A DNA stretch of 64,000 nt, taken from IMG/VR virus record IMGVR_UViG_3300018494_004239; one strand, 5' to 3'. The position numbers were made by a program, and so were the translations under genes. Below, piece by piece: positions 4,724 through 46,873 of this stretch. Each line of letters starts with the position of its first letter. The first letter of the stretch is position 1. The stretch is from an uncultured virus (IMG/VR IMGVR_UViG_3300018494_004239). Lineage: Duplodnaviria; Heunggongvirae; Uroviricota; Caudoviricetes. Under the pieces are notes generated by a model that did no database searches, had not been told where the DNA came from, and saw only the letters and a list, made by a program, of their open reading frames with translations.

Positions 4724-4724
4724 T

Positions 4725-12419: not shown

Positions 12420-12451
12420 TTGACAACTTAATATCAATATGATATAATGTA
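12420..12451 (+). promoter_or_regulatory. sigma70 promoter overlapped by a candidate NrtR operator
   Basis: TTGACA 12420-25 and TATAAT 12443-48; palindrome AACTTAATATCA-ATA-TGATATAATGTA at 12425-12451 matches sites at 21857 and 27242. Confidence 0.75.
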
Positions 12452-12483: not shown

Positions 12484-12816
12484 ATGTTTGAAAATAGAAA
12501 AAGTGTAAACTGTAAGGTCATTATGCCAGCAAAGGCATTCAGAATCAATAGCGAGGAAGATTACGATGGTTTTGATGTGATGTGCAAGCGTGGTCGAAAT
12601 TGCGATTGTGAATATCAAAACAGCGGATATTGCTCTTGCAATGGTATTTGCGGTGACCAAGAAAAGATTGGTTATGTAAAACCGAATTCTGCCTGTCGTA
12701 TGTATCCGCCTGTAGGTTCTTATGTTATTTATAACATCAAAGGAGAAATTATTACAGTAACCGAAGAACAGGCGAAATCCTCTGTTGTTTTCGAAGATAG
12801 TGGTGAAACACTATGA
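12484..12816 (+). CDS. Hypothetical Cys-rich protein
   Basis: First gene of the NDT-nrtR operon; ATGA overlap with the next gene. Confidence 0.7.
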   Translation: MFENRKSVNCKVIMPAKAFRINSEEDYDGFDVMCKRGRNCDCEYQNSGYCSCNGICGDQEKIGYVKPNSACRMYPPVGSYVIYNIKGEIITVTEEQAKSSVVFEDSGETL

Positions 12817-13247
12817 GAAAAGTGTATTTAGCAAGTCCTTTTTTCTCTGAAAAAGAATTGGTTGTCTATAAAGAAGTAATCGAACTTTTGCGGGCATTGA
12901 AGGACACAGAAGTATATGTTCCAATGGAACACGAAATAGAAAACGGCACAGAAATCGAAAACCATGTTTGGGCAGAAAAGGTCTTCGCGCTTGATAGAAA
13001 AGCACTTTGCGAAAGTGAATATGTATTTGTGCTTAATTTCGGAATGTATTCCGACAGCGGAACTGCTTGGGAAGCAGGATATGCCTTTGGAAAAGGCAAA
13101 AAGGTTTACCAAGTTTGTTGCGGGGATGATTGCGATTATTCTTTGATGATGATGAATGGATGCAGTCATGTAATTACACTTGATGATTTGAGAAAAGGAA
13201 TTCTGCCAGAAAAAGAAGGAAGATTGGCAGAAATAGTCCAAAAGTGA
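12813..13247 (+). CDS. Nucleoside 2-deoxyribosyltransferase / N-glycosidase family protein
   Basis: VYLASPFF and DSGTAWEAGYA motifs. Confidence 0.88.
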   Translation: MRKVYLASPFFSEKELVVYKEVIELLRALKDTEVYVPMEHEIENGTEIENHVWAEKVFALDRKALCESEYVFVLNFGMYSDSGTAWEAGYAFGKGKKVYQVCCGDDCDYSLMMMNGCSHVITLDDLRKGILPEKEGRLAEIVQK

Positions 13248-13257: not shown

Positions 13258-13974
13258 ATGAGCGATAATAAAAATTTTATGAGTTATGAGAGACCTTCGG
13301 TAACGGCAGACGTCGTTATGTTTAAGGTTCACGATAAAATCATTGACAAAAGACAGAAGAGCAAGAAAAGTCTTCGTGTTCTCTTGATTCGAAGAGATAC
13401 AGAACCTTATGAGGGTAAGTGGTCTCTTCCTGGTGGTTTCGTCGGCATTGACGAAACTATTGAGGAAGTTGCTCGCAGAAAGGTTTTTGAAAAGACTGGC
13501 TATGACCAGTATTACCTTGAGCAACTTTACACCTTCGATGGTATTGACCGTGATAGTCGTTGGCGTGTTATTTCTACGGCATATGTTGGAATTATGAAAC
13601 CTCATACTTTTACAAAGCAGTATGGAACTCATGCTGGTGAGTGGTTTGAGATTCTTGATGATAACACCTTGATTGGTATTGATACACTTCGTACTTTAAC
13701 TTTTGACGACCTTGCTTTTGACCACGGGAAAATTATCACAAAGGCGCTTGAAAGAGTTCGTGGTAAGTTGTTTTATTCTGATATCGGTTTCGAGTTTGAA
13801 GAAGAGGAGTTTACTGTTGGTTCTTTACAGGGAACTTTTGAGACCATTTTAAATAAACCTATCAGTAACTTTAAGCGCACTATGGACAGTCGTATTGAAG
13901 AAACCGATAAGACTGTCTATGGTATGGCATATCGTCCTGCAAAAGTTTATCGAAAGAAGAAACTCGATGATTAA
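13258..13974 (+). CDS. nrtR: NrtR-type Nudix-wHTH regulator (ADP-ribose responsive)
   Basis: PSVTADVV, WSLPGGFV, degenerate Nudix box (RRKVFEKTG), LEQLYTF..RD.R.RVIS.AY, LAFDH, C-terminal FT..L...E and RPAKVYR. Confidence 0.85.
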   Translation: MSDNKNFMSYERPSVTADVVMFKVHDKIIDKRQKSKKSLRVLLIRRDTEPYEGKWSLPGGFVGIDETIEEVARRKVFEKTGYDQYYLEQLYTFDGIDRDSRWRVISTAYVGIMKPHTFTKQYGTHAGEWFEILDDNTLIGIDTLRTLTFDDLAFDHGKIITKALERVRGKLFYSDIGFEFEEEEFTVGSLQGTFETILNKPISNFKRTMDSRIEETDKTVYGMAYRPAKVYRKKKLDD

Positions 13975-15683: not shown

Positions 15684-15848
15684 AAAAACACCACCAAAAG
15701 GAATATTTTATTATATAATATATCGGTTTACATAAAAAATCAAAAAATAATGCAACTTTTTCTAATATTTGTTCAGTTTCTATTTTGTTGACAAAGTTGC
15801 AAAAATATTGTATAATATATGAAATTACATAAAAAAGGAGATATCGTT

Positions 15849-18741: not shown

Positions 18742-19950
18742 GTGATAAAATTGAATAATTCTTTTACTTTTATCGACCTGTTTGCTGGTATTGGCGCTTT
18801 TCATTTAGCACTTGAAAAACTTGGAGGCAAATGTGTTTTTGCATCAGAAATAGATAAATATGCAATCGAAACTTATGAAGAAAATTTCAACATGAGTTCT
18901 GACTGCAACATATTCGATGTGAAAGCAGAAGATATTCCCAAACATGATATTTTGTGTGCAGGTTTTCCTTGTCAGCCATTTTCAAATGCTGGACATAAGA
19001 AGGGTTTTGTTGATACAAGAGGAACTTTGTTTTTTGAGATTGAAAGAATTTTAAAATATCACAAAACAAAGTATATTATTTTAGAAAACGTAAAGCACCT
19101 TGTAAATCACGATGATGGAAATACATTTAGGGTAATTAAAGAGCATTTAAGTGACCTTGGTTATGTTTTAACAAAAGACCCACTAATCGTTTCTCCTCAT
19201 CATATAGGAGTACCACAAAATAGAGAACGTATTTTTATTGTTGGTATTCATCGAGATTATTATGAAGGAGAATATATCGAAATCGATGTTCCAAATAAAG
19301 AAAATTATCCTAGCACAAGTGTATTTTCCGTTTTGGACAGACATATAGATAATTATTCCGAATATGCAATAAGTGAATATGAAGGAGATGTATTAAGAGC
19401 ATGGGATGCTTTAATTAAACACTTTAGGAAGCATAATAAAAAAGTAATCTCACCAATTTTGATTGACGAATTTGGTCAAGATTATGATTATACAAATTTG
19501 CCAAAGTGGAAACAGGACTATTGTCAAAAAAATAGAGAATTTTATTTAAACAACAAAGAATATTTAGACGCTTGGATGCAACTTTTTGAAGTTAATAAAT
19601 TCAAAAAGAGAGATAGGAAACTTGAATGGCAAGCGGGAGACACCGCAGATAGTGTTTATGAAACACTTATACAATTGAGACAATCGGGAATAAGGTGTAA
19701 AAGAACAAGCACTTTTCCTGCTCTCGTTGCCATAGTGCAAACATCTATTGTCGGAAAATATTTGAGGAGAATTACTCCAAGAGAAGCGGCAAGATTGCAA
19801 TCTTTCCCAGAAAATTACATATTAAACAAAAATGAACACATGGCATATAAGCAACTTGGTAACAGTGCCAATGTTGATGTCATTGTTTATATAGCAGAAC
19901 AATTGCTAAAAATAAAATTAAAAGGAGCAGATAATAATGAGCAAATGTGA
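18742..19950 (+). CDS. dcm: DNA (cytosine-5)-methyltransferase, no adjacent restriction enzyme
   Basis: FIDLFAGIG, GFPCQPFS, ENV, PQNRERIFIVG, EAARLQSFP and QLGNS motifs. Confidence 0.93.
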   Translation: MIKLNNSFTFIDLFAGIGAFHLALEKLGGKCVFASEIDKYAIETYEENFNMSSDCNIFDVKAEDIPKHDILCAGFPCQPFSNAGHKKGFVDTRGTLFFEIERILKYHKTKYIILENVKHLVNHDDGNTFRVIKEHLSDLGYVLTKDPLIVSPHHIGVPQNRERIFIVGIHRDYYEGEYIEIDVPNKENYPSTSVFSVLDRHIDNYSEYAISEYEGDVLRAWDALIKHFRKHNKKVISPILIDEFGQDYDYTNLPKWKQDYCQKNREFYLNNKEYLDAWMQLFEVNKFKKRDRKLEWQAGDTADSVYETLIQLRQSGIRCKRTSTFPALVAIVQTSIVGKYLRRITPREAARLQSFPENYILNKNEHMAYKQLGNSANVDVIVYIAEQLLKIKLKGADNNEQM

Positions 19951-20418: not shown

Positions 20419-21177
20419 TTATTTAATACCACAAGCATCTTTGGCGAGCTTATCAACTAATTCGTTTAATTCAACACCAGTATGGGATTTTACTTTAAAA
20501 AAGTTAACTTTGATTTTGTCGGAAACATTTTGAATGAAGTTATAGTATGCGATGGTCTGTTTTTTCTTTCTTTTCCACTCACCAGTTGCCCACTTTTCAA
20601 TACCTTCATAGTCGTAATAAATATCGATTTTATCATAACCACGAGCAATTGCCTCTTTTATGGCACATTTTGAGGCAATGATTTCGCCAGCAACATTTCT
20701 TAATTGTGCATCTTCCAAATCGTTACCGCAACCAGATAGATTTACTTGTTCTCCGTCAAAGAAAATGACAGCGCCCCATCCATAAGTGAACTTTTCAAGA
20801 TTGAAACTGCCATCAACATAAGCAACACATCCTGTTTTTGGGGTATCAAATGTCGGTTTTGGGTTTGTACTTTTATTTTGATAAGATGTAATTGTGGAAA
20901 CTGCATCATCAAAAATATAAGTACTCATAAACTTTGCAGAAGGGAAACCATTTGTTTGTGCTTGACAATCTGGCCAATTAGTGAAAATACCAATAATTCT
21001 ACCATTGGAAACAGGATAAACCTTTCCTAAAATCTTGTCATAATAGTTGATTGCCTCAACAACATCATTGCACTTTTTGTATTCTGGTGTTGGATAGTCT
21101 GCAATGGCAAGTTTCATATTGTCTTCATCAAAAAAGAAACCTTCATATTTTCCTTTTTTTACAACATAAACATCCAT
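20419..21177 (-). CDS. rnhA: Ribonuclease HI with two N-terminal viroplasmin-like hybrid-binding domains
   Basis: YVVKKG..G and Y.V.NGR..GIF.NW..C..Q..GF; YVDGSF, RNVAGEI, YDYEGIEKW and KVKSHTG..NE..D.LAK motifs. Confidence 0.9.
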   Translation of the reverse strand: MDVYVVKKGKYEGFFFDEDNMKLAIADYPTPEYKKCNDVVEAINYYDKILGKVYPVSNGRIIGIFTNWPDCQAQTNGFPSAKFMSTYIFDDAVSTITSYQNKSTNPKPTFDTPKTGCVAYVDGSFNLEKFTYGWGAVIFFDGEQVNLSGCGNDLEDAQLRNVAGEIIASKCAIKEAIARGYDKIDIYYDYEGIEKWATGEWKRKKKQTIAYYNFIQNVSDKIKVNFFKVKSHTGVELNELVDKLAKDACGIK

Positions 21178-21704
21178 TACTTAATCTTCCTTTCTACTGT
21201 AATAATTGTGTCATTGTGCCAACCGCCGTGAGGCACCATCAAAATTTCCACGATTTCGAAACCATATTTTTTACCAATACCACCACTATTCCAAGAACAA
21301 GTTATTACATACCCTCCTTTTTTTACAAGGCGACTAATTTGTTCTTTTTGTTTCGACCAATAAGAAGCTTGTGTAGTTTCCATATTTACACTCATATTAA
21401 ATTTTTTGTATACTTCTGATACTTGGCGAGGGCTGTACGGTGCGTCGTATAGTATCATGTCTGCACAATTGTCGTCCAAAATTTTTAAAAAGTCAGTTGC
21501 ATCCATATTATAATCTGTTCCGTATTGAGGGTCTAAATCATTTGTAATGGTTGCAATTTTATTTTTGTTGGCAAAAGGGTCTACAATGGTTGGGTTTGGG
21601 GGTAGTTTCCCAATATATTTTTCAATAAGTTCTTTTACTGGTTTAATATCGAATGTATTTTTGTTCGGCATACACCAAACTCTGTTAATCTCAATCTTTG
21701 ACAT
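21177..21704 (-). CDS. Small phage-type adenine DNA methyltransferase-like protein
   Basis: TFDIKP, VDPFAN, TNDL, DAPYSPRQ (DPPY variant) and HGG.HNDTI..VE motifs. Confidence 0.75.
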   Translation of the reverse strand: MSKIEINRVWCMPNKNTFDIKPVKELIEKYIGKLPPNPTIVDPFANKNKIATITNDLDPQYGTDYNMDATDFLKILDDNCADMILYDAPYSPRQVSEVYKKFNMSVNMETTQASYWSKQKEQISRLVKKGGYVITCSWNSGGIGKKYGFEIVEILMVPHGGWHNDTIITVERKIK

Positions 21705-21778: not shown

Positions 21779-21883
21779 GACTTAATATCAAATTGAAAAT
21801 AATTTTTATTTTTTGTCTTAAAACTCTTGACAAATCAAAAAACTTGTGCTATAATCTACTTAACATCAAAATGATAATAAGTA
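21779..21883 (+). promoter_or_regulatory. Promoter of the NADAR-pncA/prs operon with candidate NrtR operators
   Basis: TTGACA 21827-32, TATAAT 21850-55; TACTTAACATCA-AAA-TGATAATAAGTA at 21857-83; weaker copy at 21779-21805. Confidence 0.8.
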
Positions 21884-21899
21884 AAAGGAGATGTACATT

Positions 21900-22889
21900 A
21901 TGATTGAAAAGTTTGACGGTTTATATGATTTTTTGAGCAATTTCTATGAGAGTAAGATTGAGTTTGAGGGCATTGTTTATCCTACTGTGGAACATGCCTT
22001 CCAAGCAGCAAAAACTCTTGATGTAAACGAGAGACAAAATATTGCTAACCTTACAACTCCTTCTCTTGCTAAACGAGCAGGTCGTTCTGTAAAACTTCGT
22101 GCTGACTGGGAGAATGTTAAAGATGAGGTTATGCTTACCTGTCTTCGTGCAAAGTTCGCTATTCCCGAATTGAGGGAGCGCCTTATTCACACTGGTAATG
22201 AGTGGTTGGTTGAAGGCAACGCTTGGCACGATAATTATTGGGGCGATTGTTCTTGTTTTAAATGTGCAAATATTAAGGGCAAGAATACTCTCGGTTATCT
22301 GCTTTGTAAGGTGAGAAAAGAAATCGTTGACAATGCAGAAGAAATTCTTGTTGTTGTCGATATGCAAAATGACTTCACCAAAGGTGTCCTTGGTAACGAG
22401 GAAACGAAGAATGTTATTCCTACTGTCGCAAAGTGCATTAAAGAGCATCGTGCAAATGGTGGCAAAGTTATCTTCACTTACGATACTCACTATGCAGACA
22501 CCTATATGGATAGTCAGGAAGGTCGTAATCTTCCTGTTCCTCACTGTTTTGATGGTGAAAAGGGATGGGAAATTGTAGATGAACTTCGTCCTTATGTCGC
22601 TAATGCCATTTGCATTAAGAAACCTACTTTTGGTAGTGTTGAACTCGCAAACTATTTGGTAACGAAAGAGAAGGAACTCGCTGCAATTGGTAAGAAGTTG
22701 GTTGTTAAGTTTGTCGGTGTTTGCACTGACATCTGTGTTGTATCCAATGTTATGCTTGTTAAAGCATTTCTGCCAGAGGTAGAGGTTGTGGTTTATGAAA
22801 ACTGTTGTGCGGGTGTAACTCCTGAAAAGCATAATGCAGCAATCGAAACTATGAAATCCTGTCAGGTTAAGGTGGCTAACTGTGAATAA
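21900..22889 (+). CDS. NADAR domain fused to nicotinamidase (PncA/isochorismatase family)
   Basis: N-terminal FLSNFY, YPTVEHAFQAAK, AKF, LVEGN.WHDNYWG, GKN.LG; C-terminal VVVDMQNDF, DTH, PHC, KPTFGS, GVCTDICV. Confidence 0.9.
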   Translation: MIEKFDGLYDFLSNFYESKIEFEGIVYPTVEHAFQAAKTLDVNERQNIANLTTPSLAKRAGRSVKLRADWENVKDEVMLTCLRAKFAIPELRERLIHTGNEWLVEGNAWHDNYWGDCSCFKCANIKGKNTLGYLLCKVRKEIVDNAEEILVVVDMQNDFTKGVLGNEETKNVIPTVAKCIKEHRANGGKVIFTYDTHYADTYMDSQEGRNLPVPHCFDGEKGWEIVDELRPYVANAICIKKPTFGSVELANYLVTKEKELAAIGKKLVVKFVGVCTDICVVSNVMLVKAFLPEVEVVVYENCCAGVTPEKHNAAIETMKSCQVKVANCE

Positions 22890-23211
22890 TTTAAAAATCA
22901 CAATCCCTTCTTATGACCAATTTTGTTCAATGAATAATAATAGGGAATATAAGGGGTTGGAATTCAAAGTTCACATGACAGAAAACCTATACCTATTGTT
23001 TGAAATGAGAAACGAAAATTTAATATTCATAAATGGTCAGTCTAAAATATATGTTGCTTGGTGTACCCATAATGGGTTTCCAATCGCTACCGAAACATAT
23101 ATAAATTGTAAGGAAGGATATGACGAAGCAATTAAGTTTTTGTTTCAAACTGCAGAAAAATTCGAAAATGTATTTCGTGATTTTTTGAAAAATACAACTG
23201 TTGCGAGGTAA
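22882..23211 (+). CDS. Hypothetical protein
   Basis: Overlapping, co-oriented ORF inside the operon. Confidence 0.6.
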   Translation: MNNLKITIPSYDQFCSMNNNREYKGLEFKVHMTENLYLLFEMRNENLIFINGQSKIYVAWCTHNGFPIATETYINCKEGYDEAIKFLFQTAEKFENVFRDFLKNTTVAR

Positions 23212-23216
23212 AGAAA

Positions 23217-23441
23217 ATGGATAGTTATAATCTGGAATATAAAGATGTCCTTTGCAAGTCTGTTGACTGGGAGACATATACTTTTGTCCTTGTGTTTAGG
23301 GGAAAGGAATATGTATATAAGCAACAGGGAGACATTAGTTGTTCTGCTGACACAGACCATATTCGTTGTGTTATTGAAGAGTTTAAGACTAATTTGATGA
23401 CACAATTTTTCGAAGAAAACTTTGATAAGGAGTGCGATTAA
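23217..23441 (+). CDS. Hypothetical protein
   Basis: ORF with GAGG RBS inside the operon. Confidence 0.6.
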   Translation: MDSYNLEYKDVLCKSVDWETYTFVLVFRGKEYVYKQQGDISCSADTDHIRCVIEEFKTNLMTQFFEENFDKECD

Positions 23442-23442
23442 G

Positions 23443-24282
23443 ATGATTAAACTTAATGAAAATATTGTTGAAATGGGTAGATTCCCAGATGGCACCATGG
23501 CAATTAAGAATGAATTTTTTGCTGAAATCGTAAACGAAAACGAATTTGCATTTGAATGGTATTATGAAAATAACGACGAAACTATGCTTCTTTTTAATGT
23601 TGTAATGCATTTGAGAGAGCATGCTCCGAGAGATGCAAAGTTTTATCTATATATGTATTATATTCCTAATGCAAGAATGGATAGAACGAAGGAAATATCT
23701 GAAGTTTTTACTTTAAAGTATTTCTGCCAGTTAATCAACATGATGAACTTTGAAAAAGTTTTTGTTCTTGATGCACATTCCAGTGTTTCTTTGGCACTTA
23801 TTGACCGTGTTGTGCAACTTGATGTTGGTAAATATATCAATAATGCTATTGAGATGTATAATCCTGATGTGATTTTCTTCCCCGATGAAGGAAGTTGTAA
23901 GAGATATGCAGATATCATCAACGGCAAAGCAATGCACGGCAGAAGTACGAAAAATAAGCATGCTTATCCTGTTGCTTATGCAAATAAAAACCGTGATTGG
24001 AGCACTGCTAAAATCCTTGGTCTTGAGGTTGTCGGAAAAGAGTTACTTGATGGCAAGAGAGTTCTTATTGTCGATGATATCTGTTCCAAGGGTGGAACAT
24101 TCTATTATTCTGCAAAGGCACTCCGAGAGTGTGGGGCGACCAATATCGGTCTTTACATCACTCATTGCGAAAACACAATTCTCACTGGCGACTTGATTAA
24201 GTCTGATTTGGTCGAAAATATCTATACAACTAATAGTATTTTTACAGAAGAACATCCGTTAATTACTAAAGTCGATTTGTAA
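23443..24282 (+). CDS. prs: Ribose-phosphate pyrophosphokinase-like protein (divergent type seen beside NAMPT; possibly Adps-like)
   Basis: RFPDGT, YIPNARMDR, LDAHS, FPDEG, IVDDICSKGGTF and YITH motifs. Confidence 0.85.
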   Translation: MIKLNENIVEMGRFPDGTMAIKNEFFAEIVNENEFAFEWYYENNDETMLLFNVVMHLREHAPRDAKFYLYMYYIPNARMDRTKEISEVFTLKYFCQLINMMNFEKVFVLDAHSSVSLALIDRVVQLDVGKYINNAIEMYNPDVIFFPDEGSCKRYADIINGKAMHGRSTKNKHAYPVAYANKNRDWSTAKILGLEVVGKELLDGKRVLIVDDICSKGGTFYYSAKALRECGATNIGLYITHCENTILTGDLIKSDLVENIYTTNSIFTEEHPLITKVDL

Positions 24283-24313
24283 TTTGGGCATAGAAAAAGA
24301 AGGTTGATGAAAA

Positions 24314-24583
24314 TCAACCTTCTTTTTGTTCTTTAAAACCCATCCCCTTGAAATCAGGTGGGGTGTTGAGAGTTAGTTTTGTGGGGATACTTTCTCGTCT
24401 ATATCTCAACTTTCCATATCGCATTGTCTTATCATATACTTTGCAACAGGAATACTTTTCTACATATGATTTCGCATCGTCTTCGTTTTCAAAATAACCG
24501 ATTTCTTCTACTCCAAATTCAACACGACCGCAACCTTGCAAGTCAAATAAATGCTCTATGATAAAAATCTCTTTTTCTTTCAC
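24314..24583 (-). CDS. Hypothetical protein
   Basis: GTG start after GGAGG RBS. Confidence 0.6.
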   Translation of the reverse strand: MKEKEIFIIEHLFDLQGCGRVEFGVEEIGYFENEDDAKSYVEKYSCCKVYDKTMRYGKLRYRRESIPTKLTLNTPPDFKGMGFKEQKEG

Positions 24584-24695
24584 AATAACACCTCCATTAT
24601 TTTAAAATATATTATATAACAAAGTGAATGATGAATTTTTTTGCCCACACAATGTATTAATCCAATGGCATTGTTTGAGATTGTGAATAATATCA

Positions 24696-25130
24696 TTATC
24701 CTTCGCATTCTTTGAGAAGTTCAAAGTGATGGTCTTTGAGAATCTCTTGGATAAATTCATTGGCAACTTCGTCGTGATATTTTACATCTTTCACAACAAC
24801 ATGTTTTCCTTCTTCAAGTGCTTTCTTAATCATTTGATATTCTTCGAGTTCATAAGGTGGAAGAGTTTCTGGGTTGAAGTTTTCAACATCGTCTTCATTC
24901 CACCAAGAATTAGCATAATGTTCATTGAGTTCTTCAATGGTTCGGAAAACTCGACCCTCCGAATCGTACCAGTCTTCGCCTTTAATGGTTGCAATGTGGT
25001 CTACAATATGGTCATACATTTTAAGAATTGGATATTTTTTCAGTTCTTCTTCGGAATAATCTTCTTTTTTGTATGCGATTACAAAAGACGAACTGGAACT
25101 ATTTGTTACAAAACCTGTTCTAAATTTCAC
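24696..25130 (-). CDS. Hypothetical protein of the FVTNSSSSSF N-terminal family
   Basis: MKFRTGFVTNSSSSSF, a motif I recall from phage and MGE proteins. Confidence 0.8.
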   Translation of the reverse strand: MKFRTGFVTNSSSSSFVIAYKKEDYSEEELKKYPILKMYDHIVDHIATIKGEDWYDSEGRVFRTIEELNEHYANSWWNEDDVENFNPETLPPYELEEYQMIKKALEEGKHVVVKDVKYHDEVANEFIQEILKDHHFELLKECEG

Positions 25131-25248
25131 AGTGCTTTCCTCCTGTTTTTTTCTTTATTATAACATATTGAGAGACCGTTGTCAACATTTTAGATTGACA
25201 AAGTGTTTGTTTTTTGATATAATTGTTTTAAAAGAGGAGGTATAAAAT

Positions 25249-25725
25249 GTGAAAAAAGTCTTAATTAGTATATTTTGTTTAGTTTCAGGATTAGTGTTAA
25301 ATCTTTTTATTCACGAGGGTTCGCACTTCTTGTTTTTGAATATTTGCAATGGCAATTTTGTTGATGGAGGTTTTGGCACAGAAAGTTTTGTGTCTGGTTA
25401 TGTTGATGTAAAATACATTCCTCTCGTTGCATTAAGTAGTATTTTTGTTCCGCTAACCATATCTTGTATTTTGGTGTTTATAAAACAACTATATGTTCAA
25501 ATTTTTTGTTGTGCATTTACGATTTCTACTTTTATGAATTCGTTGTTGGGTCTGATAATGAATTTTTTCGAAAAAAATACGGCAACAAGAGGAACATATG
25601 ATGTCCTTCTCGCTGCCGATTATAGCAATAATTCGGTTTTTATATTGTTTATAACTTTTGTTTTTCTTGTTGTTTCTGGTATTGTTATTGGTTTTAACAT
25701 GAAGCGAATAATAGATAGTTTTTAG
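25249..25725 (+). CDS. Membrane protein with HExxH (M50-like metalloprotease)
   Basis: FIHEGSH within hydrophobic helices; promoter 25195-25223. Confidence 0.65.
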   Translation: MKKVLISIFCLVSGLVLNLFIHEGSHFLFLNICNGNFVDGGFGTESFVSGYVDVKYIPLVALSSIFVPLTISCILVFIKQLYVQIFCCAFTISTFMNSLLGLIMNFFEKNTATRGTYDVLLAADYSNNSVFILFITFVFLVVSGIVIGFNMKRIIDSF

Positions 25726-26432
25726 TGGATTCTGTGTTTTGCTAACTCAAAATGTTCTTTGTTTGCTTCAATGCCAATAAATGTTCTATTTAAGTTTTTA
25801 CAAGCAACACCAGTAGAACCACTACCCATAAAAGGGTCTAAAACCGTATCATTTTCTTTACTGCAAAGTAAAACACATCTTTCCATTAAAGCAATTGGTT
25901 TTTGGGACGAGTGTTTTACTTTTTCTTTTGAGTTATGCGGTAATGCTGGGATATCGCTCCACACATCCGAAAGAGAGACACCATCTTTCAGTGTTCCCTC
26001 TGTGTACTCTTTTCTTTTGGATTCGGATTGGATTTTTATGTTGTTAAAAACAGGATTGCCCTTTGTGTAATAGCAAATTGGTTCATAACCAGAAGCAAGT
26101 GCTTTGCCACGAGTATTATTAAATGCTCTTTTTCTGCTCCAGATAATTATTCTTCTTTCTTCAAAATATTTATCTAAAAGCAATGCAATGTGACGGTTGT
26201 ATTGTCTTCCTGTAAACATAATAATTGAAGCATCATCTTTCGTAATTCTATCGAATTCTTTAATGCAATTATGTATAAATTCCAAATATTCTTCGCTATT
26301 TTTCCATTGATTATCCCAATCGTCATCAACAACTTGAAAATATGGAATATCCGTTATGACACAATCGACTGTTTTAGACTGCATCTTTTTCATATTTTCC
26401 AAACAATCACCTAAAACTAAAATATTTCCCAT
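25722..26432 (-). CDS. DNA methyltransferase (N6A/N4C, beta class)
   Basis: GDCLE, TDIPY, H..QKP and VLDPFMGSGSTG motifs. Confidence 0.9.
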   Translation of the reverse strand: MGNILVLGDCLENMKKMQSKTVDCVITDIPYFQVVDDDWDNQWKNSEEYLEFIHNCIKEFDRITKDDASIIMFTGRQYNRHIALLLDKYFEERRIIIWSRKRAFNNTRGKALASGYEPICYYTKGNPVFNNIKIQSESKRKEYTEGTLKDGVSLSDVWSDIPALPHNSKEKVKHSSQKPIALMERCVLLCSKENDTVLDPFMGSGSTGVACKNLNRTFIGIEANKEHFELAKHRIH

Positions 26433-26520
26433 AAACACCCTCCTATTGAGTTATTTCTTAATTATATATGAAAGAAATGAAAAAAGCAAATAGAAAAACC
26501 CGCCGAAGCGGGTTTTCTAA

Positions 26521-26685
26521 TTAGTCTTGCTTTGTGTCTTTTTGTTTTTGCATTTCCAACTCTTCTTTTTTGAGGCGATTGGATTCTTCGATTGCTTCAG
26601 CAAGGCGATTTGCAGCCTTTACCATTGCAGGGAAATCGCAATCAAAGAATTTTGCTCCTCTTCTAGTCTGTGCAAAATTGTTCAT
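26521..26685 (-). CDS. Small hypothetical protein (54 aa), not in the ORF track
   Basis: MNNFAQTRRGAKFFDCDFPAMVKAANRLAEAIEESNRLKKEELEMQKQKDTKQD; GGAGGA RBS; terminator AAAACCCGCCGAAGCGGGTTTT just downstream. Confidence 0.7.
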   Translation of the reverse strand: MNNFAQTRRGAKFFDCDFPAMVKAANRLAEAIEESNRLKKEELEMQKQKDTKQD

Positions 26686-26830
26686 AACATATCCTCCTTC
26701 GAATATATAAATTTTCTAACAGATTCATTATAATATATACGAAAATTTTTATCAAAAAATATTTGCATAGTTGACATTGCCGAGTTTTTGTGATATAATT
26801 ATATTATAAAATATATGGAGGTTAGAAGAA

Positions 26831-27148
26831 ATGATTTCTCTCATAGTTGCATTTATTGTAATTACCCTTATTCTTGCGGGGTTTGTTCTATTTAGCAAAC
26901 TAAATTGGTTGCAGTTCGCTGCTTTAACACTTGTAATTGGAATTTTAATTATGTTTGTTCCTGTATTTTTTCAACATCAAGCGGTTGTTGGCGATAAGGA
27001 GTTTGTATGCAGGGGTGAGCAATTTAGTAAATATTATTGCGACACAGATGAAAATAAATACTATGAAATTGCTCTCGAACACAATTGGAAGTTCTGGGAT
27101 GTTTATAGTGTAACAGAGGTTGCGGAAGCGGATATTCCCAAAAAATAA
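26831..27148 (+). CDS. Hypothetical membrane protein
   Basis: Two N-terminal TM helices; promoter 26771-26799. Confidence 0.7.
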   Translation: MISLIVAFIVITLILAGFVLFSKLNWLQFAALTLVIGILIMFVPVFFQHQAVVGDKEFVCRGEQFSKYYCDTDENKYYEIALEHNWKFWDVYSVTEVAEADIPKK

Positions 27149-27211
27149 TCTACTATGATGCGGTTCTAAAAAAGAATCGCATCTTTTTTTTATTTTTTTA
27201 TCGAAAAGGTC

Positions 27212-27268
27212 TTGACAAATCGAAAATCTTGTGCTATAATCTACTTAACATCAAAGTGATATTAAGTA
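27212..27268 (+). promoter_or_regulatory. Promoter of the NAMPT-like/nadE operon with a candidate NrtR operator
   Basis: TTGACA 27212-17, TATAAT 27235-40, TACTTAACATCA-AAG-TGATATTAAGTA at 27242-68; near-identical to 21826-21886. Confidence 0.82.
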
Positions 27269-27306
27269 AAAAATATCACAAAACCAAAATAAAAGGAGAT
27301 ATTGTT

Positions 27307-29103
27307 ATGAGTAAATTTGAAAGACTTATTCCCATGTTGTTAACCGATTTTTATAAGACCATCCATCACCTTGCCTATGTTCCCAAGTTGGAATATCTGG
27401 TAAGTTACTGGACACCTCGAAAGAGCAGATATGAAGATTGCAATAAGGCAGTTGTTTTCGGTCTGCAGGGTACTGCAAAGAAGTATCTCATTGAGTACTT
27501 TAATGAGCATTTCTTTAAGCGTCCTATCGAAGAGATTAAGGAAGAGTACATCCGCTATATTGCGAATACTATGAGTGTTCAGGCAGCAGACACTACAATT
27601 CTCGAAGCATTGCATTCTTTGGGGTATCTGCCTATTCGTATTAAGGCACTTCCCGAAGGCACTGTTGCAAACATCCGTACTCCTATTTATGAGTTCAAGA
27701 ACACCGTTGCTGGTTATGGTTGGCTTGTAAATTATCTGGAAACCTATCTCTCTGTTAATGTTTGGCATCCTATCAACTCTGCTACTGTTGCTTGGAGATA
27801 CCGTAAGGTTGTCAATGATGCATTTGAGAAGAGTGTTTCCAAGACTGCTGTTGCTCGTGTCGATGGCGATATGAAAACTGCAATGAATGCAGATTGCCTT
27901 AATGATAAGGAAAATACTGCTTGTGGTGATTTCTCCATGAGAGGCATGACCAGTATCGAAGGTGCTGCCAAGAGTTCTGCTGCTCACCTGCTTTCTTTCG
28001 TGAACACCGCAACCATTAGTGCAATTCCTTGGTTGGAAGAGTACTATAACTGTGATTGTACCAAGGAAGTCGTTGGTCGTGGTTGTCCTTCTACCGAACA
28101 CAGCGTTATGAGCTCTTATGGTCGTGAGGGCGAGTTTGAATGTTACCGTCACTTGATTGAAGATGTATTTCCTGCTGGTCCTTTAAGCATGGTATCTGAC
28201 ACCTATGATTATTGGAATGTGCTCACCAACTATTTGCCTCGTCTTAAGGCAAGCATTATGAATCGTAACGGCAAGATTATTATTCGTGGCGACTCTGGCG
28301 ACCCTGTCGATATTATCTGCGGTACTTTGAAGGCAAAAGACTATATGGTAGTCGATGGTCTTACCGAAGACGGTATTAAGGCATACTTTAAGAAGAAGGC
28401 AGAAGACGAATATCCTTGGAATGGTACTTCTGAAACTTGGTATCGTGTTCGTATTGGCGATTATCTTTATGAGGTTACTTGCGAACACGAATGGATTGCC
28501 GAAACCGATGACGGTGAAGGCGGATGCTACGGTGAAACTGTTGAATTCGTTGATTATAAGAAAACCTATATTACTCCCGAAATGAAGGGAACGGTTGAAA
28601 TTCTGTTTGAAATTTTCGGTGGTTATATCAATGCAAAGGGATTTAAGGTTCTTGATGAGCATATCGGTGCTATCTATGGTGATGCTATCACCTATGAGCG
28701 AGCAGTTGAAATCTATCAGAGATTGATGGATAAGCAGTATGCAGTTACTTGTGTAACTCTTGGTATTGGTTCTTATACCTATCAGTGTGTAACTCGTGAC
28801 TCTCTCGGTCAGGCATTGAAGGCAACCAATGCTATCATCGATGGCAAGGAAACCCAGATTTACAAGGACCCCAAGACCGACCATTCTGCTGGCAATAACT
28901 TCAAAAAGTCCCAGAAGGGAATGTGCTATGTTTACGAAGACGAAAGTGGCGATATTCTTTACAAGGATTGCTTAACTTTCGAAGACATGGAAAGCGAAGA
29001 ATATGCAGATAATATGCTTGAAACCATTTTCGAAGATGGTGTGATGGTTAAGGAATATTCTCTTGCAGAAATTCGTGCTCGTTTGAATAATGGCAATTTC
29101 TAA
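27307..29103 (+). CDS. NAMPT/NadV-fold nicotinate or nicotinamide phosphoribosyltransferase
   Basis: TDFYK..H, DFSMRG, STEHSVM, SMVSDTYD, IRGDSGDP, IYGDAIT, GIGSYTYQ..TRD, KDPKTD and KKSQKG motifs. Confidence 0.92.
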   Translation: MSKFERLIPMLLTDFYKTIHHLAYVPKLEYLVSYWTPRKSRYEDCNKAVVFGLQGTAKKYLIEYFNEHFFKRPIEEIKEEYIRYIANTMSVQAADTTILEALHSLGYLPIRIKALPEGTVANIRTPIYEFKNTVAGYGWLVNYLETYLSVNVWHPINSATVAWRYRKVVNDAFEKSVSKTAVARVDGDMKTAMNADCLNDKENTACGDFSMRGMTSIEGAAKSSAAHLLSFVNTATISAIPWLEEYYNCDCTKEVVGRGCPSTEHSVMSSYGREGEFECYRHLIEDVFPAGPLSMVSDTYDYWNVLTNYLPRLKASIMNRNGKIIIRGDSGDPVDIICGTLKAKDYMVVDGLTEDGIKAYFKKKAEDEYPWNGTSETWYRVRIGDYLYEVTCEHEWIAETDDGEGGCYGETVEFVDYKKTYITPEMKGTVEILFEIFGGYINAKGFKVLDEHIGAIYGDAITYERAVEIYQRLMDKQYAVTCVTLGIGSYTYQCVTRDSLGQALKATNAIIDGKETQIYKDPKTDHSAGNNFKKSQKGMCYVYEDESGDILYKDCLTFEDMESEEYADNMLETIFEDGVMVKEYSLAEIRARLNNGNF

Positions 29104-29162
29104 CAAAAATGCTCCCAGTTAATCTGGGAGCACCTACATAAAATAAGGAAAGAGGTAACTAT

Positions 29163-29927
29163 ATGGAAAAATTTAATGCTTTGAAGGTTAAAAATGATAT
29201 TGTTGAGTGGATTCGTCAGTGGTTCGAAGAGAACGGAAAGGGTTGTAATGCCATTATTGGTATTTCTGGTGGTAAGGATAGTTCCATCGCCGCCGCCTTG
29301 TGTGTAGAAGCATTGGGTAAAGATAGGGTGATTGGTGTTACGATGCCAAATACGGTTCAAGTAACCGAGGATGCACTTAATCAGACTATGAATGCGGTAA
29401 ACGATGTTGTTAAGAGTCTTGGTATTGTATGCTATACCGTACCTATCAATGCACCGTATTGTTCTCTTATTCACTGCATTGAGAATGCAATGAATAAGGA
29501 TGTGAGTGAACAGACTGCCATCAATCTCGCTCCGAGAATTCGTATGTCTACTCTTTATGCGGTATCCCAGTCCTGTAATGGTCGCGTAGTAAACACCTGT
29601 AATCTTTCTGAAGATTGGGTGGGTTATTCTACAAGATGGGGCGATAGCGTCGGTGATTTTGCCCCTTTGAAGAGTTTTACTGTTACGGAACTAAAACAGA
29701 TTGGTTACGAACTTGCACATCTGCTTCCAAAGCATCTTGTAGACAGAGTTCCTACGGATGACTTGTGTGGTAAGACCGACGAAGATAATCTCGGTTTCAC
29801 TTATGCAGTATTGGATAAATACATTCGTACTGGTAAGTGCGAAGATGTTAAGGTGAAAGAACTTATCGATGAAAAACACCGCAAGAATCTTTTTAAGGAA
29901 AGACCTATCCCTAAATTTGAATATTGA
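29163..29927 (+). CDS. nadE: NH3-dependent NAD+ synthetase
   Basis: GISGGKDSS, NLAPRIRM..LY, NLSE..VGY.T.WGD and PTD.L...TDED.LGF.Y motifs; no glutaminase domain. Confidence 0.95.
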   Translation: MEKFNALKVKNDIVEWIRQWFEENGKGCNAIIGISGGKDSSIAAALCVEALGKDRVIGVTMPNTVQVTEDALNQTMNAVNDVVKSLGIVCYTVPINAPYCSLIHCIENAMNKDVSEQTAINLAPRIRMSTLYAVSQSCNGRVVNTCNLSEDWVGYSTRWGDSVGDFAPLKSFTVTELKQIGYELAHLLPKHLVDRVPTDDLCGKTDEDNLGFTYAVLDKYIRTGKCEDVKVKELIDEKHRKNLFKERPIPKFEY

Positions 29928-29966
29928 AAAAGAAACTTCTGCACAAAATTTGTGCAGAAGTTTTTA

Positions 29967-30402: not shown

Positions 30403-32076
30403 TTAAAATTTTAGTCCGCATTCTGGGCAGAATTTGGGCACGCTTTGAAAATTGGTAAAATTATATCCACAGGAGGGGCAGAACCTTGGTGGTTGTTGCA
30501 CTACCTGTTGTGTGTTTTCTACTGGTTTGGGTTGACCGCAATTACTGCAGAATTTGAGATAGTTTTGTGTACCGCAATTTCTGCACATCCATTGTGAATT
30601 GTCAGTAGGGCTAAGCATTACCTTAAAAGGTGTTGCTCTTCTTTGACCACAAAAACCGCAAAAATCACCTATTGCTTCATTTAAGCAATTTGGGCACAAC
30701 CATTCATTGTCTTCGCCAAATGGTGAAAAAATAGTTGCATTTTGTGGTTTGTTAACGGGTTTTTGAACAGACATATCAGACATTGAAAGGTTAAGACCTT
30801 CGATTCCTACATCAATATGCTTTGGTTCTTCCCTTTTTGGTTGAATTTGCATTGATTGAACCGTGTTCTCAAAAGTATTTGGTGGTACATTTTGAGTTAA
30901 TGGGAAGAAAGGTGTCGTCTGTTGTGTATGTTGTGTGCGTTGTGACATTTCTATAGAGAAGTTATTGTCATTATTCTCTTTTGTGTCACAATCATCAACT
31001 GTTTCAACTGGAAGTTGTACATATTGTTGGAAACCTTGTTTTGGAGGTTGTTGTACGAATACATCTGTTTGACTATTTTGCAAATCATCAAATTTTTCTT
31101 CGTATGCGGTGAAGTCAAAACTAACTTCTTGTACATCTTGTGTCATACCAGCGTTTTCAGTATTTTCTTCGACGGTACCAATTTCCATCGTTTCAACATT
31201 AAAATCAAAATCTTCTGGTATTTCAATTTTCTGTTCTTTTACATTTTCTTCAATATATTCTTGTGGCATTTCGATTGGCATTATTGGTTGAACAGAAAAT
31301 TGTGAAAATCGTTTCATATCTGGTTCTGGTTCTTCAACAATGTCTTCTTCGGCAGGGACAAAACCAATATCGTCAATCCTTGCTTCTGTTAAATTCAGTC
31401 CTAACACTTTTGCAAATGTAACTCGGTTGGCCGCATTGTTTATGATATCATTTCTTAAATGTTCTAATTCTTCTGGATTTACATTTTGCATTGAGTATTG
31501 TTTTAATTCATCTAACACACAAGATAATAGGTCTTGTGAAATTTTTGTTACAAAACTATCAGTAATACAATATTCACCGTCATCATTTGTTACTATTCTT
31601 TGAAATAGTGTAAAGGGGTCTGAAATCTTAACAGAAAACACTCCGCTAAAATCAATTAAAAAATCTTTATTATTATATCTGTATTCTATTGGCGCTGGAG
31701 GGAAGATGCTTATATTGTTAATTGGTTTGAAGTTTACGAAAACACATTGTCTATCTTTTCCCAAAAAAGAAAAGTCAGAATTAGTGAAAAAATCCATATC
31801 AACAGTTTGTCTGTCGCATCTGCCAAAGATGAATGCTGGCGAAGAGCATTCTTCAATATAATATACTCCTTCTGAAAAACAAAAATCTGAAAACTTTCCG
31901 TTTTCGAGAATAAAAACACCTTGGTTGTTGCTGATGTTTATATATTGAGGAGCGGAGGTTGCTTTTTTATTATAAATATTTGCCTTTTTAAATAAAGTTT
32001 TATCTGGCATATTAGAAAAATACATCGGATAATCGTCAGTATTAGAAATTGCTTTATTTATTAGGAGTAATCCCAT
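30403..32076 (-). CDS. SPFH-like (YdjI-type) protein with low-complexity linker and C-terminal zinc ribbons
   Basis: N-terminal SPFH-like pattern (ENGK, G.FS.KI.DP..F); three C-terminal CxxC..FCxxCG ribbons. Confidence 0.7.
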   Translation of the reverse strand: MGLLLINKAISNTDDYPMYFSNMPDKTLFKKANIYNKKATSAPQYINISNNQGVFILENGKFSDFCFSEGVYYIEECSSPAFIFGRCDRQTVDMDFFTNSDFSFLGKDRQCVFVNFKPINNISIFPPAPIEYRYNNKDFLIDFSGVFSVKISDPFTLFQRIVTNDDGEYCITDSFVTKISQDLLSCVLDELKQYSMQNVNPEELEHLRNDIINNAANRVTFAKVLGLNLTEARIDDIGFVPAEEDIVEEPEPDMKRFSQFSVQPIMPIEMPQEYIEENVKEQKIEIPEDFDFNVETMEIGTVEENTENAGMTQDVQEVSFDFTAYEEKFDDLQNSQTDVFVQQPPKQGFQQYVQLPVETVDDCDTKENNDNNFSIEMSQRTQHTQQTTPFFPLTQNVPPNTFENTVQSMQIQPKREEPKHIDVGIEGLNLSMSDMSVQKPVNKPQNATIFSPFGEDNEWLCPNCLNEAIGDFCGFCGQRRATPFKVMLSPTDNSQWMCRNCGTQNYLKFCSNCGQPKPVENTQQVVQQPPRFCPSCGYNFTNFQSVPKFCPECGLKF

Positions 32077-32194: not shown

Positions 32195-33553
32195 TTAGGA
32201 ATTTCGAAGTTTTTTAGAAGAATTATCGAATGCTTTTCTCAAACAATCTTGTGACGTTGAAGATGAAGTAAGAGATGCCTGTGTTGCAGTGATTTCGTCC
32301 ATTGCGGTTGAGGCACAACAACTATAGCAAGCGGTCATGGAATTGATTGTAGCGGCAGATTCTGCAAAGGACAAAGAAGCGCCTTCGTAATCAGCAGTGG
32401 AATATGCTTTTGAAGCATTATAAACATATCTGTCTTTTACTGTTGCCATAATCTCATCAATAACATCTTTGTTTTCGACAAGGTCTTCTTTTTTTGCGAC
32501 AATAGGCAGTTTTCGAGACATTGTTGCGGTATTTTTGCCACCGTCAGGTGTTTCATAAGTTACACTAACTGCAATTTCAACTTCTTTTAACTCTTCAACC
32601 AATACAGAAAATTCATAGTAGATTGTTTTATTGGAATAAAGATTGCCAAGTTTGATGCAAATATTATCCTTTTGGATTTCTTCGTTGTAATTATTGTAAT
32701 TAGGTTTGAATGCCACCATATCTGGTAGTTTTATGTTTACAATAGCATCTTTACACACAATTGCTTGTGCCGACTTCAACTCTGTTGCAAAAATGTCTTT
32801 AATTGCAAGTGCATCGGAGATGTGATTGAAAGAACCAGCACAGTTACCAGAAATTGCTTCCATAATTCCAAGGTCATAATCATCACCAAGACCAATGGAA
32901 GATGTAGAAATGCTACGATTTAAGATTTTTGGCATAAATTCTATAAACTGTTTTTCTGTGTCGAGTCCAACATTTGCACAACCGTCAGATAAAAGAACGA
33001 TTTTGCAATTGTATTTTTCCGTATCTGCAGAAGTGAATAAATCCGCTGCAGTTTCGAGAGCACCAGAAATATTCGTACAACCACCAGTTCGAATTCTGTT
33101 GATATTTGACTTTACTTCGTTTCGATTTTTATTGCTAACAGTGATTGGTTGCTGTTCTACTCTAATTCCATCATCAAACGATACGACAGCAAATTTGTCG
33201 CCTTCATTAAGTAAATCGAGTAATTCACAAGTTGCACTTAAAGCACAATCCAACTTCGATACATGGTAACTGCCACTGAGACTATTGGTATAAGTAAAGG
33301 AGGATGCTGAGCTGATTGAATTGCAAGTTACCACAGAATCATTAAATAATACAGGTGAGTCTTGGATTCTCTGGCGAGAGGCAGGAGAACTCATAGAACC
33401 ACTGCGGTCAATAACTGGGATTAGAAAAACAGGTTTTGTGCTTTTCTTAATGTGTTTCTTTTTGTCTTCACTCACATCAATAGTGAGTTTGAGGAAATTT
33501 TTCAAATTTCCGCTAAAAATATTATCTGATGCAAAACTTAAATTTACTTTCAT
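32195..33553 (-). CDS. von Willebrand factor A domain protein
   Basis: MIDAS DRSGSM, GGCTNI..AL, LLSDG.AN and IGLGDDY motifs. Confidence 0.88.
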   Translation of the reverse strand: MKVNLSFASDNIFSGNLKNFLKLTIDVSEDKKKHIKKSTKPVFLIPVIDRSGSMSSPASRQRIQDSPVLFNDSVVTCNSISSASSFTYTNSLSGSYHVSKLDCALSATCELLDLLNEGDKFAVVSFDDGIRVEQQPITVSNKNRNEVKSNINRIRTGGCTNISGALETAADLFTSADTEKYNCKIVLLSDGCANVGLDTEKQFIEFMPKILNRSISTSSIGLGDDYDLGIMEAISGNCAGSFNHISDALAIKDIFATELKSAQAIVCKDAIVNIKLPDMVAFKPNYNNYNEEIQKDNICIKLGNLYSNKTIYYEFSVLVEELKEVEIAVSVTYETPDGGKNTATMSRKLPIVAKKEDLVENKDVIDEIMATVKDRYVYNASKAYSTADYEGASLSFAESAATINSMTACYSCCASTAMDEITATQASLTSSSTSQDCLRKAFDNSSKKLRNS

Positions 33554-40461: not shown

Positions 40462-40512
40462 AAGATAAGGACTTGGTTGCAATAACCAAGTCCTTTTTTG
40501 TATATGTGTTAA

Positions 40513-41178: not shown

Positions 41179-41289
41179 ATGGTTGCCTCCTTCAAATATA
41201 TATGAAGAAATTATAAAGCATTTTTACAGAAAAATCAATTAACAAACTTATGAAAAAATCCGAGACCACTGGTCTCGGATTGTTGTTTT

Positions 41290-41991: not shown

Positions 41992-42048
41992 ATTTCTCAC
42001 CTTCTTACAAGATTTTGTATAGGGGCGATTTCTCGCCCCTATTTGATT

Positions 42049-45508: not shown

Positions 45509-45521
45509 TTAAATTTCCTCC

Positions 45522-46856: not shown

Positions 46857-46873
46857 AAAATCACTCCTTTTTG

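Follow-up and report, generated by a model that had tools for sequence, protein, structure and literature searches.

A candidate nicotinate-type variant of the NARP1 pathway, with a putative NrtR operator, on a mobile element from the animal gut

The IMG/VR record IMGVR_UViG_3300018494_004239 (uncultured virus, Caudoviricetes), of which 64,000 nucleotides of one strand were analysed (hereafter, the window; GC content about 34%), carries genes for a nicotinamidase (PncA) fused to a NADAR domain, a Prs-like protein, a NAMPT-fold transferase, and the NAD+ synthetase NadE. We regard this module, with moderate confidence and on the basis of its sequences, as a nicotinate-type variant of NARP1 in an NrtR-regulated form, in which nicotinate and ADP-ribose pyrophosphate (ADPR-PP) would be joined to deamido-NAD and the product would then be amidated by NadE. 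NARP1 (Adps plus Namat) was described from phages SPbetaL1, Bas63, FADO, and ICP1, and from Paenibacillus foliorum (10.1101/2024.02.11.579819; PMC12774641; PMC13586617). The observations are the genes, the promoter and operator sequences that they share, the substitutions in the base pocket of the NAMPT-fold enzyme, and the association of these substitutions with PncA and NadE. A deamidated NARP1-like route had been proposed from the window alone (the original prediction); the route itself gained support from the analyses below, and its framing as phage anti-defence is not established for the window (see below).

The four genes were found with Pfam, PHROG, and NCBIfam at the positions originally claimed, all on the + strand. 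The NADAR domain (amino acids 12-145, Pfam E = 3e-24) and the Isochorismatase/PncA domain (amino acids 152-329, E = 1e-31) are in one open reading frame (ORF) of 332 amino acids (21891-22889). The Adps-like Prs homologue, a predicted ADP-ribose pyrophosphokinase (23443-24282; 279 amino acids), matched phrog_619 (E = 4e-70), and the Namat-like NAMPT-fold enzyme, a predicted nicotinate ADP-ribose transferase (27307-29103; 598 amino acids), matched phrog_448 (E = 1e-160). NadE (29163-29927) is a single-domain, NH3-dependent enzyme (TIGR00552, 156.6 bits; cut-off, 63.65).

Against solved structures, the Namat-like enzyme scored 432 bits with 9w5w/9w5x (E = 2e-128), 356 bits with 9ke8, and at most 190 bits with NAMPT entries. 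The entries 9w5w/9w5x were read as SPbetaL1 Namat, as their numbering and contact residues fit the published description (PMC12774641). The protein has the NAMPT_N domain (PF18127) and not NAPRTase_N, and its score with TIGR01513 was 19 bits (cut-off, 297). In SPbetaL1 Namat, nicotinamide is bound in a pocket of Phe189, Arg192, Asp215, Ala242, Arg306, Asp13', and Tyr15'; Asp215 is hydrogen-bonded to the amide, and the activity of the D215A mutant was 8.1-fold lower (PMC12774641). In human NAMPT, the amide is bound by D219, and the equivalent residue of nicotinate phosphoribosyltransferase (NAPRT) is S214, so that this position separates nicotinamide from nicotinate specificity (PMC4442680). 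In the window enzyme, Gly207, Ala235, and Ser262 correspond to His187, Asp215, and Ala242 of SPbetaL1 Namat, respectively, and the glycine lies two residues before the stacking Phe. Because of Ala235 in place of Asp215 and Ser in place of Ala242, the window enzyme was not classified as a nicotinamide transferase.

The same substitutions define a group of relatives. In an alignment of 170 sequences (two rows shorter than 430 amino acids were left out), column 215 was Ala in 53 and Ser in one of 54 sequences (Ala/Ser type), and Asp in 89 and Glu in 27 of the other 116 (Asp/Glu type). Column 187 was Gly in 53 and Ser in one sequence of the former type, and His in 115 of 116 of the latter (one gap); column 242 was Ser in 54/54 and Ala in 116/116, respectively. 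These three were the only columns without overlap between the types. The window enzyme, like every one of the 54 sequences of Ala/Ser type, keeps the catalytic core (D13, Y15, F189, R192, the catalytic His, R306, and D308). Relative to the solved Namat, the window enzyme has two insertions, of about 28 (amino acids 179-206; 27841-27924) and about 73 residues (amino acids 354-426; 28366-28584). Since phage Kirov and L004, whose enzymes are of Asp type, share the larger one, it is unrelated to the pocket switch.

The neighbourhoods of these genes were then compared between the types. The related loci were six phage records (of which L001, L002, L008, and L009 were counted), 85 IMG/VR loci, and 80 loci from species-representative genomes, and PncA, NadE, and Adps were detected by tblastn with proteins of the window and four relatives. 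A nicotinamidase gene, a NadE gene, or both adjoined the Namat-like gene in 52 of 53 Ala/Ser loci and in none of 116 Asp/Glu loci (169 loci). Among the 89 phage and viral loci, NadE was found in nine, PncA in eight, and either gene in nine of the nine Ala/Ser loci; among the 80 genomic loci, the corresponding numbers were 33, 37, and 43 of 44. Neither gene was found in the 80 viral or the 36 genomic loci of Asp/Glu type. In the sole viral Ala/Ser locus lacking PncA, the contig ends at the Adps gene, and in the sole genomic one with neither gene, it ends 100 nucleotides before the Namat-like gene. Where NadE was found weakly or not at all by tblastn (L156, L103), a Pfam scan detected a glutamine-type NadE or a CN-hydrolase fragment. 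The Adps-like gene was present in 9/9 viral and 41/44 genomic Ala/Ser loci. The gene order varied (PncA-Adps-Namat-x-NadE, PncA-Namat-NadE-Adps, and Adps...Namat-NadE-PncA, where x is another gene); in the complete gut phage genome Phass-1, the annotated nicotinamidase, Prs, and NAMPT genes are consecutive and NadE is one small gene further.

Trees were reconstructed from the same enzymes. In a quick IQ-TREE tree of 89 rows (L005 was dropped because of a split ORF), the ten Ala/Ser rows formed one side of a single branch (SH-aLRT, Shimodaira-Hasegawa-like approximate likelihood ratio test, 98), which was matched by 0/500 label shuffles. In a FastTree tree of 170 rows, from which the trait columns were removed, the label needed two changes, of which one was forced by the starred branches, and 48 of the 54 sequences were in one clade. 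The Ala/Ser relatives are 34-69% identical to the window enzyme; the nearest are two sequences from metagenome-assembled genomes (MAGs) of Oscillospiraceae (69%), followed by Clostridium. With only one or two changes of the label, the Ala/Ser forms are one old subfamily.

The pocket changes fit nicotinate with either ribosyl donor, and the principal alternative is ordinary Preiss-Handler salvage, in which nicotinate from PncA and phosphoribosyl pyrophosphate (PRPP) from the Prs-like protein would be joined to nicotinic acid mononucleotide (NaMN) by the NAMPT-fold enzyme, NaMN would be adenylylated to deamido-NAD by a host NadD, and NadE would complete the pathway. PncA and NadE are classic genes of that pathway, bacterial hosts have NadD, PRPP is usable by Namat in vitro (PMC12774641), and the window enzyme matches NF006629 at 461.6 bits, an NCBIfam model with the name "nicotinate phosphoribosyltransferase", which is a name only. 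We nevertheless consider this alternative unlikely for the following reasons. The Prs-like protein scored 79.6 bits with ribP_PPkin (TIGR01251), under the cut-off of 113, was far below the cut-offs of all equivalog models, and matched PRPS in the PDB only at E = 1.6e-8. It groups with Adps, not only by phrog_619. Adps has a PRPS-like fold that lacks the C-terminal helices of PRPS, and it is characterised by the catalytic Lys185 and by Phe18, Arg87, His121, Asp161, Asp212, and Asp213 as acceptor residues (PMC13586617); in an alignment of nine sequences (A3), including the window protein and the Adps of ICP1, FADO, and Kirov, F18, R87, H121, D161, K185, D212, and D213 of ICP1 Adps were invariant. 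The window protein has all the residues of this set, and we predict from its sequence that it is an ADP-ribose pyrophosphokinase.

The adenine side of the Namat-like enzyme also argues for ADPR-PP. The adenine clamp of Namat consists of Arg40', Phe392, Tyr396, Thr398', Arg399', and Asp400', with the motif GSX.X.X.TRD (PMC12774641). The clamp of the window enzyme is GSYTYQCVTRD, with Tyr at position 3, Cys at position 7, and T-R-D present, and the equivalent of Arg40 is present as well. Among the 54 Ala/Ser forms, R40 was kept in 52, an aromatic residue at F392 in 54, and R399, D400, and D361 in 54; T398 was Thr in 53 and Ser in one. A PRPP user would not need these adenine/AMP contacts.

Accessory genes that handle ADP-ribose recur in the module. 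Macro proteins are encoded in or beside it in seven loci (L003, L055, L148, L159, L146, L008, and L155), and a Macro protein, Adpp, is a proven accessory of NARP1 (10.64898/2026.01.28.702374). A microbial PARG was found in the module neighbourhood of L092, and NADAR is encoded between the Namat-like gene and NadE in two Ruminococcus MAGs (L137, L140), in addition to its fusion to PncA in the window. As for the host context, canonical PncB (PF17767) was found in 5/5 Clostridium-type genomes tested that also have the module, so that another ordinary NAPRT would be superfluous in them. Relative to the operon nrtR-pncA-pncB-nadD-nadE of C. acetobutylicum (PMC2330246, Table 1), the Adps-like and Namat-like genes take the place of pncB and nadD.

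The absence of NadD from the window, as originally stated, was confirmed. Of the 71 window ORFs scanned with Pfam (most ORFs of at least 100 amino acids, apart from those that only overlap a longer ORF), PF01467 was detected only in 4244-4735 (- strand). This sole protein of the cytidylyltransferase fold is CoaD (TIGR01510, 151 bits, cut-off 103; NadD models at most 40 bits, cut-offs at least 112). PF01467 was detected in 0/5 records carrying the set (Phass-1, complete; three IMG/VR genomes 96%, 100%, and 100% complete; and one 31% complete), the detection control being positive in 14/14 genomes, and in 0/84 module-flanking ORFs scanned of 127 candidates. No NadD-type gene was thus found in four complete or near-complete phages; the phages add NadE and never NadD, though NadD would become the bottleneck of a route through NaMN. 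The Adps partner, the clamp residues, the accessory genes, the lack of PF01467, and the PncB redundancy together point to ADP-ribose rather than PRPP as the ribosyl source.

The reaction sequence of the proposed nicotinate-type variant would be as follows. When NAD+ is cleaved to ADP-ribose and nicotinamide, the ADP-ribose would release an NrtR-type repressor, judging from the NrtR family, and both transcription units of the module would be transcribed. PncA would convert nicotinamide to nicotinate and NH3, and the fused NADAR might, more tentatively, free ADP-ribose from ADP-ribosylated targets. By homology, the Adps-like protein would convert ADP-ribose and ATP to ADPR-PP. In the novel step, the Namat-like enzyme would join ADPR-PP and nicotinate to deamido-NAD with release of pyrophosphate, bypassing NaMN and NadD, and NadE would form NAD+ from deamido-NAD, ATP, and NH3. 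On balance, we lean towards the view that the Ala-type relatives of Namat are a new nicotinate ADP-ribose transferase for which an adenylyltransferase would not be needed, that the module is induced by ADP-ribose via NrtR, and that the fused NADAR feeds it with extra ADP-ribose.

Alternatively, the Ala-type enzyme might join nicotinamide to ADPR-PP as in NARP1 itself, PncA and NadE being an unrelated, co-located add-on that feeds host PncB and NadD. The intact catalytic core, the largely kept clamp, the residual activity of SPbetaL1 Namat D215A (PMC12774641), and the frequent mixing of several NAD genes in NrtR regulons (PMC2330246) are compatible with this. It is quite improbable, however, as the changes at the three pocket positions are found throughout the Ala/Ser type (54/54) and never in the other 116 sequences, PncA under the same promoter and operator would destroy the enzyme's own substrate, and the lack of PncA and NadE from every Asp/Glu locus is hard to explain if the add-on is independent of the pocket. 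Least probable is a different pyridine base or donor giving an NAD analogue or signalling decoy, or a housekeeping function in the detoxification of ADP-ribose, unconnected with defence or counter-defence: the pocket is remodelled beyond the three perfect sites (e.g., Phe/Trp at the equivalent of SPbetaL1 184 is replaced by Arg/Lys in 41/54 Ala/Ser forms), the window version is predicted to be NrtR-regulated and is nearest to chromosomal copies in Oscillospiraceae and Clostridium, but the constant company of PncA, whose product is nicotinate, and NadE, whose substrate is deamido-NAD, fits nicotinate specifically, and the same module occurs in phage genomes, once beside a Tad3 Thoeris inhibitor (L105).

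Several points weigh against the nicotinate-type variant that we favour. The enzyme activities of the Ala/Ser-type module are all predicted. An enzyme with Ala could still take nicotinamide or PRPP; SPbetaL1 D215A keeps about one-eighth of the nicotinamide activity, and Namat itself uses PRPP in vitro (PMC12774641). At clamp position 396 (Tyr in SPbetaL1), the window enzyme has Cys, and an aromatic residue occurs in only 25/54 Ala/Ser forms, many of the others having an insertion there. F92 and D216 of ICP1 Adps are not conserved in the window protein, nor in that of phage FADO. The loci compared were not a random sample: 20/64 parts of each collection were scanned, and the 80 candidates most similar to the window were taken from the 586 viral ones and likewise from the 576 genomic ones. 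The covariation of pocket and partners reflects one or two ancient events and not many independent origins, and no statistical independence is claimed. Hosts have NadD, so its absence from phage genomes leaves the use of the host enzyme possible, and the window is a fragment of an element that may carry nadD elsewhere.

As for the regulation, the NAD genes form two units, not one operon: unit 1 consists of NADAR-PncA, two small ORFs, and the Prs-like gene, and unit 2 of the NAMPT-fold gene and NadE, and between the two are unrelated genes (about 3 kb), among them one for a DNA methylase on the reverse strand. The originally proposed co-regulation was borne out by an 84-nucleotide repeat (D1) before both units, whose copies (21803-21886 for unit 1 and 27188-27271 for unit 2) are 87% identical. 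Each copy contains a TTGACA-17-TATAAT sigma-70 promoter (12/12 consensus) followed at once by the palindrome TTAANATCANNNTGATNTTAA. With two or fewer mismatches, this palindrome occurs at four sites in the 64 kb (12428, 21782, 21860, and 27245), where 0.24 were expected; four sites were found in 0/100 shuffled sequences. On the + strand, the promoter of unit 1 (21827-21855) is TG-extended, with an operator palindrome (21860-21880) just downstream of its -10 box and a distal, operator-like copy with two mismatches (21782-21802) upstream of its -35 box; the promoter of unit 2 (27212-27240) is followed downstream of its -10 box by an operator with no mismatch (27245-27265).

The remaining site (12428-12448) is over the promoter of a regulator operon 8 kb upstream of the NAD module. 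In this promoter (TTGACA ... TATAAT; 12420-12448, +), the operator palindrome TTAATATCAATATGATATAAT lies between the hexamers and also overlaps them, and the site forms an inverted-repeat pair (I13) with 27242-27267. The operon encodes an NrtR-type protein (13258-13974, +) with Nudix (PF00293, 49.3 bits) and NrtR winged-helix (PF21906, 39.1 bits) domains, both above cut-off, and 95 bits with NF050029, under the equivalog cut-off; we predict that it is an ADP-ribose-responsive repressor. DNA binding by NrtR is weakened by ADP-ribose, as shown for the Synechocystis and Shewanella proteins (PMC2330246). Since ADP-ribose releases NrtR repressors from DNA, the module is predicted to be inducible by a product of NAD+ cleavage, and both units would be regulated by this protein through the shared operator. 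NrtR genes adjoin 21/36 Asp/Glu-type and 33/44 Ala/Ser-type genomic loci, and in 18 bacterial operons of Ala/Ser type, a similar palindrome (ATCA-N3-TGAT) lies upstream of the first gene, at a distance of 40-225 nucleotides. The exact operator pattern of the window was found in 0/171 related loci; the loose pattern (three or fewer mismatches) was noisy, with at least one match in 75/171 loci, and only hits directly upstream of operons were used.

The module was compared with known systems. As in NARP1, the module combines an Adps-like gene of the Prs fold and a Namat-like gene of the NAMPT fold, and the catalytic core, most clamp residues, and Lys185 and the acceptor residues of Adps are kept. 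Unlike NARP1, the window has Ala for Asp215, Ser for Ala242, Gly for His187, and Cys for the clamp residue Tyr396; Ala/Ser modules have nicotinamidase and NadE as obligatory partners, which 0/116 canonical-type loci have; and the predicted product is deamido-NAD and not NAD+. In the window, moreover, the genes are divided between two units with an NrtR operator. NARP1-AP, which is NARP1 with the Macro-domain ADP-ribose-1''-phosphate phosphatase Adpp (10.64898/2026.01.28.702374), is similar in that Macro proteins are encoded between the Namat-like gene and NadE, or beside the module, in the seven related loci; the accessory of the window is instead the NADAR fused to PncA, with no Macro protein. 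The window shares with Preiss-Handler operons such as that of C. acetobutylicum (PMC2330246) the entry by PncA, the exit by NadE, the predicted deamido-NAD intermediate, and the NrtR control, but has the Adps-like and Namat-like genes instead of a PncB-type enzyme and NadD. With the NrtR-regulated prs-nadV operons of gamma-proteobacteria and Cytophaga (PMC2330246), it shares an NrtR-type repressor, a palindromic operator over the promoter, a pair of Prs-like and NadV-like genes, and, as predicted for the window, ADP-ribose as anti-repressor; those operons carry an Asp-type enzyme and neither PncA nor NadE, and were read in 2008 as salvage of nicotinamide with PRPP. NARP2 (Nampt plus Nmnat) and NARP3 (PnuC plus NadR) are also NAD+ restoration systems encoded on mobile elements (PMC13464706); unlike the window module, both need an adenylyltransferase, and neither uses ADP-ribose, nicotinate, or NadE.

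The reaction of nicotinate and ADPR-PP to deamido-NAD was not found described in full-text searches of the literature on NARP1, Namat, and Adps, of which the supplementary tables of the NARP1 preprints may list PncA or NadE. The terms NadE, PncA, nicotinamidase, nicotinic acid, and deamid- do not occur in the Osterman, RyR, and aRES preprints or in the Adps structure paper, nor does nicotinate in the last three of these, nor NADAR in the RyR and aRES preprints; nicotinic acid, NadE, and nicotinamidase are not mentioned in the Namat structure paper. Two apparent matches to NadE in a 2026 editorial proved to be the surname Nadel. If the proposed route is correct, this would be a new reaction of NAD metabolism, and phages and other mobile elements would have a fourth way of undoing NAD+-depleting immunity. 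It would also explain the operons of Prs, NAMPT-like, PncA, and NadE genes with no nadD in many genomes of Clostridium, Lachnospiraceae, Oscillospiraceae, and Sphingobacterium, and Gly/Ala/Ser at positions 187/215/242 of SPbetaL1 Namat would serve as an annotation rule to tell nicotinate-type from nicotinamide-type enzymes. An NrtR operator on a mobile element further suggests a counter-defence inducible by the product of a host NADase. In L105, which has an Ala-type module, the gene directly upstream of PncA (L105:7610-8401) encodes a Tad3-family Thoeris inhibitor; that contig, binned into a Nanoarchaeia MAG and encoding a T4-type RNA ligase, is probably phage DNA.

The element that carries the module is mobile and from a bacterium of the animal gut. 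The window stretch occurs in sequencing runs of animal faeces and gut metagenomes, of which six of the seven best-matching runs may be the source sample; no RNA run was among the runs listed. No phage structural gene was found in the 64 kb (69 window proteins against PHROGs, 71 against Pfam), and the nearest relatives of the module are in Oscillospiraceae and Clostridium genomes, so that the phage anti-defence framing of the original prediction is not established for the window. No match was obtained by megablast of the module against phages or of window positions 40000-60000 against plasmids. A PcfJ-like protein (42049-44583) has matches in phages (412 records) and plasmids (578 records) at less than 30% identity. 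The element could be a large phage, a plasmid, or a chromosomal island, and a counter-defence role in the window is plausible.

Further features of the two units and the regulator operon are as follows. In an alignment of the PncA domain of the fusion with Pyrococcus PncA (1ilw), D, DxH, H, K, and C were at matching positions, which we take to be the Asp/Lys/Cys triad and the D-x-H...H metal site of the Pyrococcus structure. The score with the NCBIfam PncA equivalog was 30 bits, below the cut-off of 174; the domain would be specific for nicotinamide. The two-domain NADAR-PncA architecture was found in 20 of the 120 best protein clusters (44-95% identity). Another eight clusters (P0019-P0026) are of proteins of about 450 amino acids, with PncA domains 44-46% identical and about 270 extra residues with no recorded Pfam domain, which might represent a further fusion partner in this lineage of nicotinamidases. 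The small ORFs inside unit 1 (both +), of 109 (22882-23211) and 74 amino acids (23217-23441), were not assigned a function; the former had no informative match (Atlas scores of 0.82 or less, the noise level), and the latter had no similarity to two "YorP-like" ORFs of Kirov. No homologue of the small window ORFs used as queries (those other than orf68) was found in the 169 related loci. Unit 1 ends with a terminator-like hairpin (24294-24327, +) and unit 2 with a hairpin terminator (29933-29963), which is a palindromic stem (I18) called on the - strand by the scan. The first gene of the regulator operon (12484-12816, +; 110 amino acids) had no match in Pfam, PHROG, or NCBIfam, and its function is unassigned. 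The second (12813-13247, +) encodes a nucleoside 2-deoxyribosyltransferase-like protein (PF05014, E = 2.7e-16; phrog_7995), which might act on a pyridine nucleoside or nucleotide and had no homologue among the 169 related loci.

The window also encodes Tn7-like TniQ, TniB, and integrase, four DNA methylases, a GIY-YIG homing endonuclease, PcfJ-like proteins, MetK, CoaD, YqeY, and many unassigned ORFs. In the Tn7-like set (51669-57600, -), TniQ is a fusion with helicase-associated domains, and the other members are a TniB-like AAA ATPase and a transposase of rve type. The DNA methyltransferases (18742-19950, 21177-21704, 25722-26438, and 57907-58857; one C5 and three N6/N4 or related) had no restriction partner that was noticed, and one is located between units 1 and 2 of the NAD module. 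Besides CoaD, the element carries a cofactor gene for a full-length S-adenosylmethionine synthetase (7069-8124, -; phrog_1569, E = 3e-129). A YqeY/GatB-like protein is encoded at 62201-62647 (-); similar genes occur near NARP1-type modules, between the Adps and Namat-like genes in L055 (817-1263) and four genes after Namat in Kirov (Kirov_84, L001). An SPFH/Band 7 protein of 550 amino acids is encoded at 9135-10787 (+), the DNA being 69.5% identical to L003:15590-16986. The IMG/VR record L003, which has a provirus classification and a CheckV completeness of 100%, also contains this module of four genes. In the crAss-like phage cr126_1, an SPFH gene is two genes after Adps, and directly downstream of NadE in the window are genes for a weakly SPFH-like/double-zinc-ribbon protein (30403-32076, -) and a VWA protein (32195-33553, -). 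Finally, a thermolysin-type (M4) metallopeptidase of 940 amino acids is encoded at 15819-18641 (+); it has an FTP propeptide motif as well as an atrophied Ig domain.

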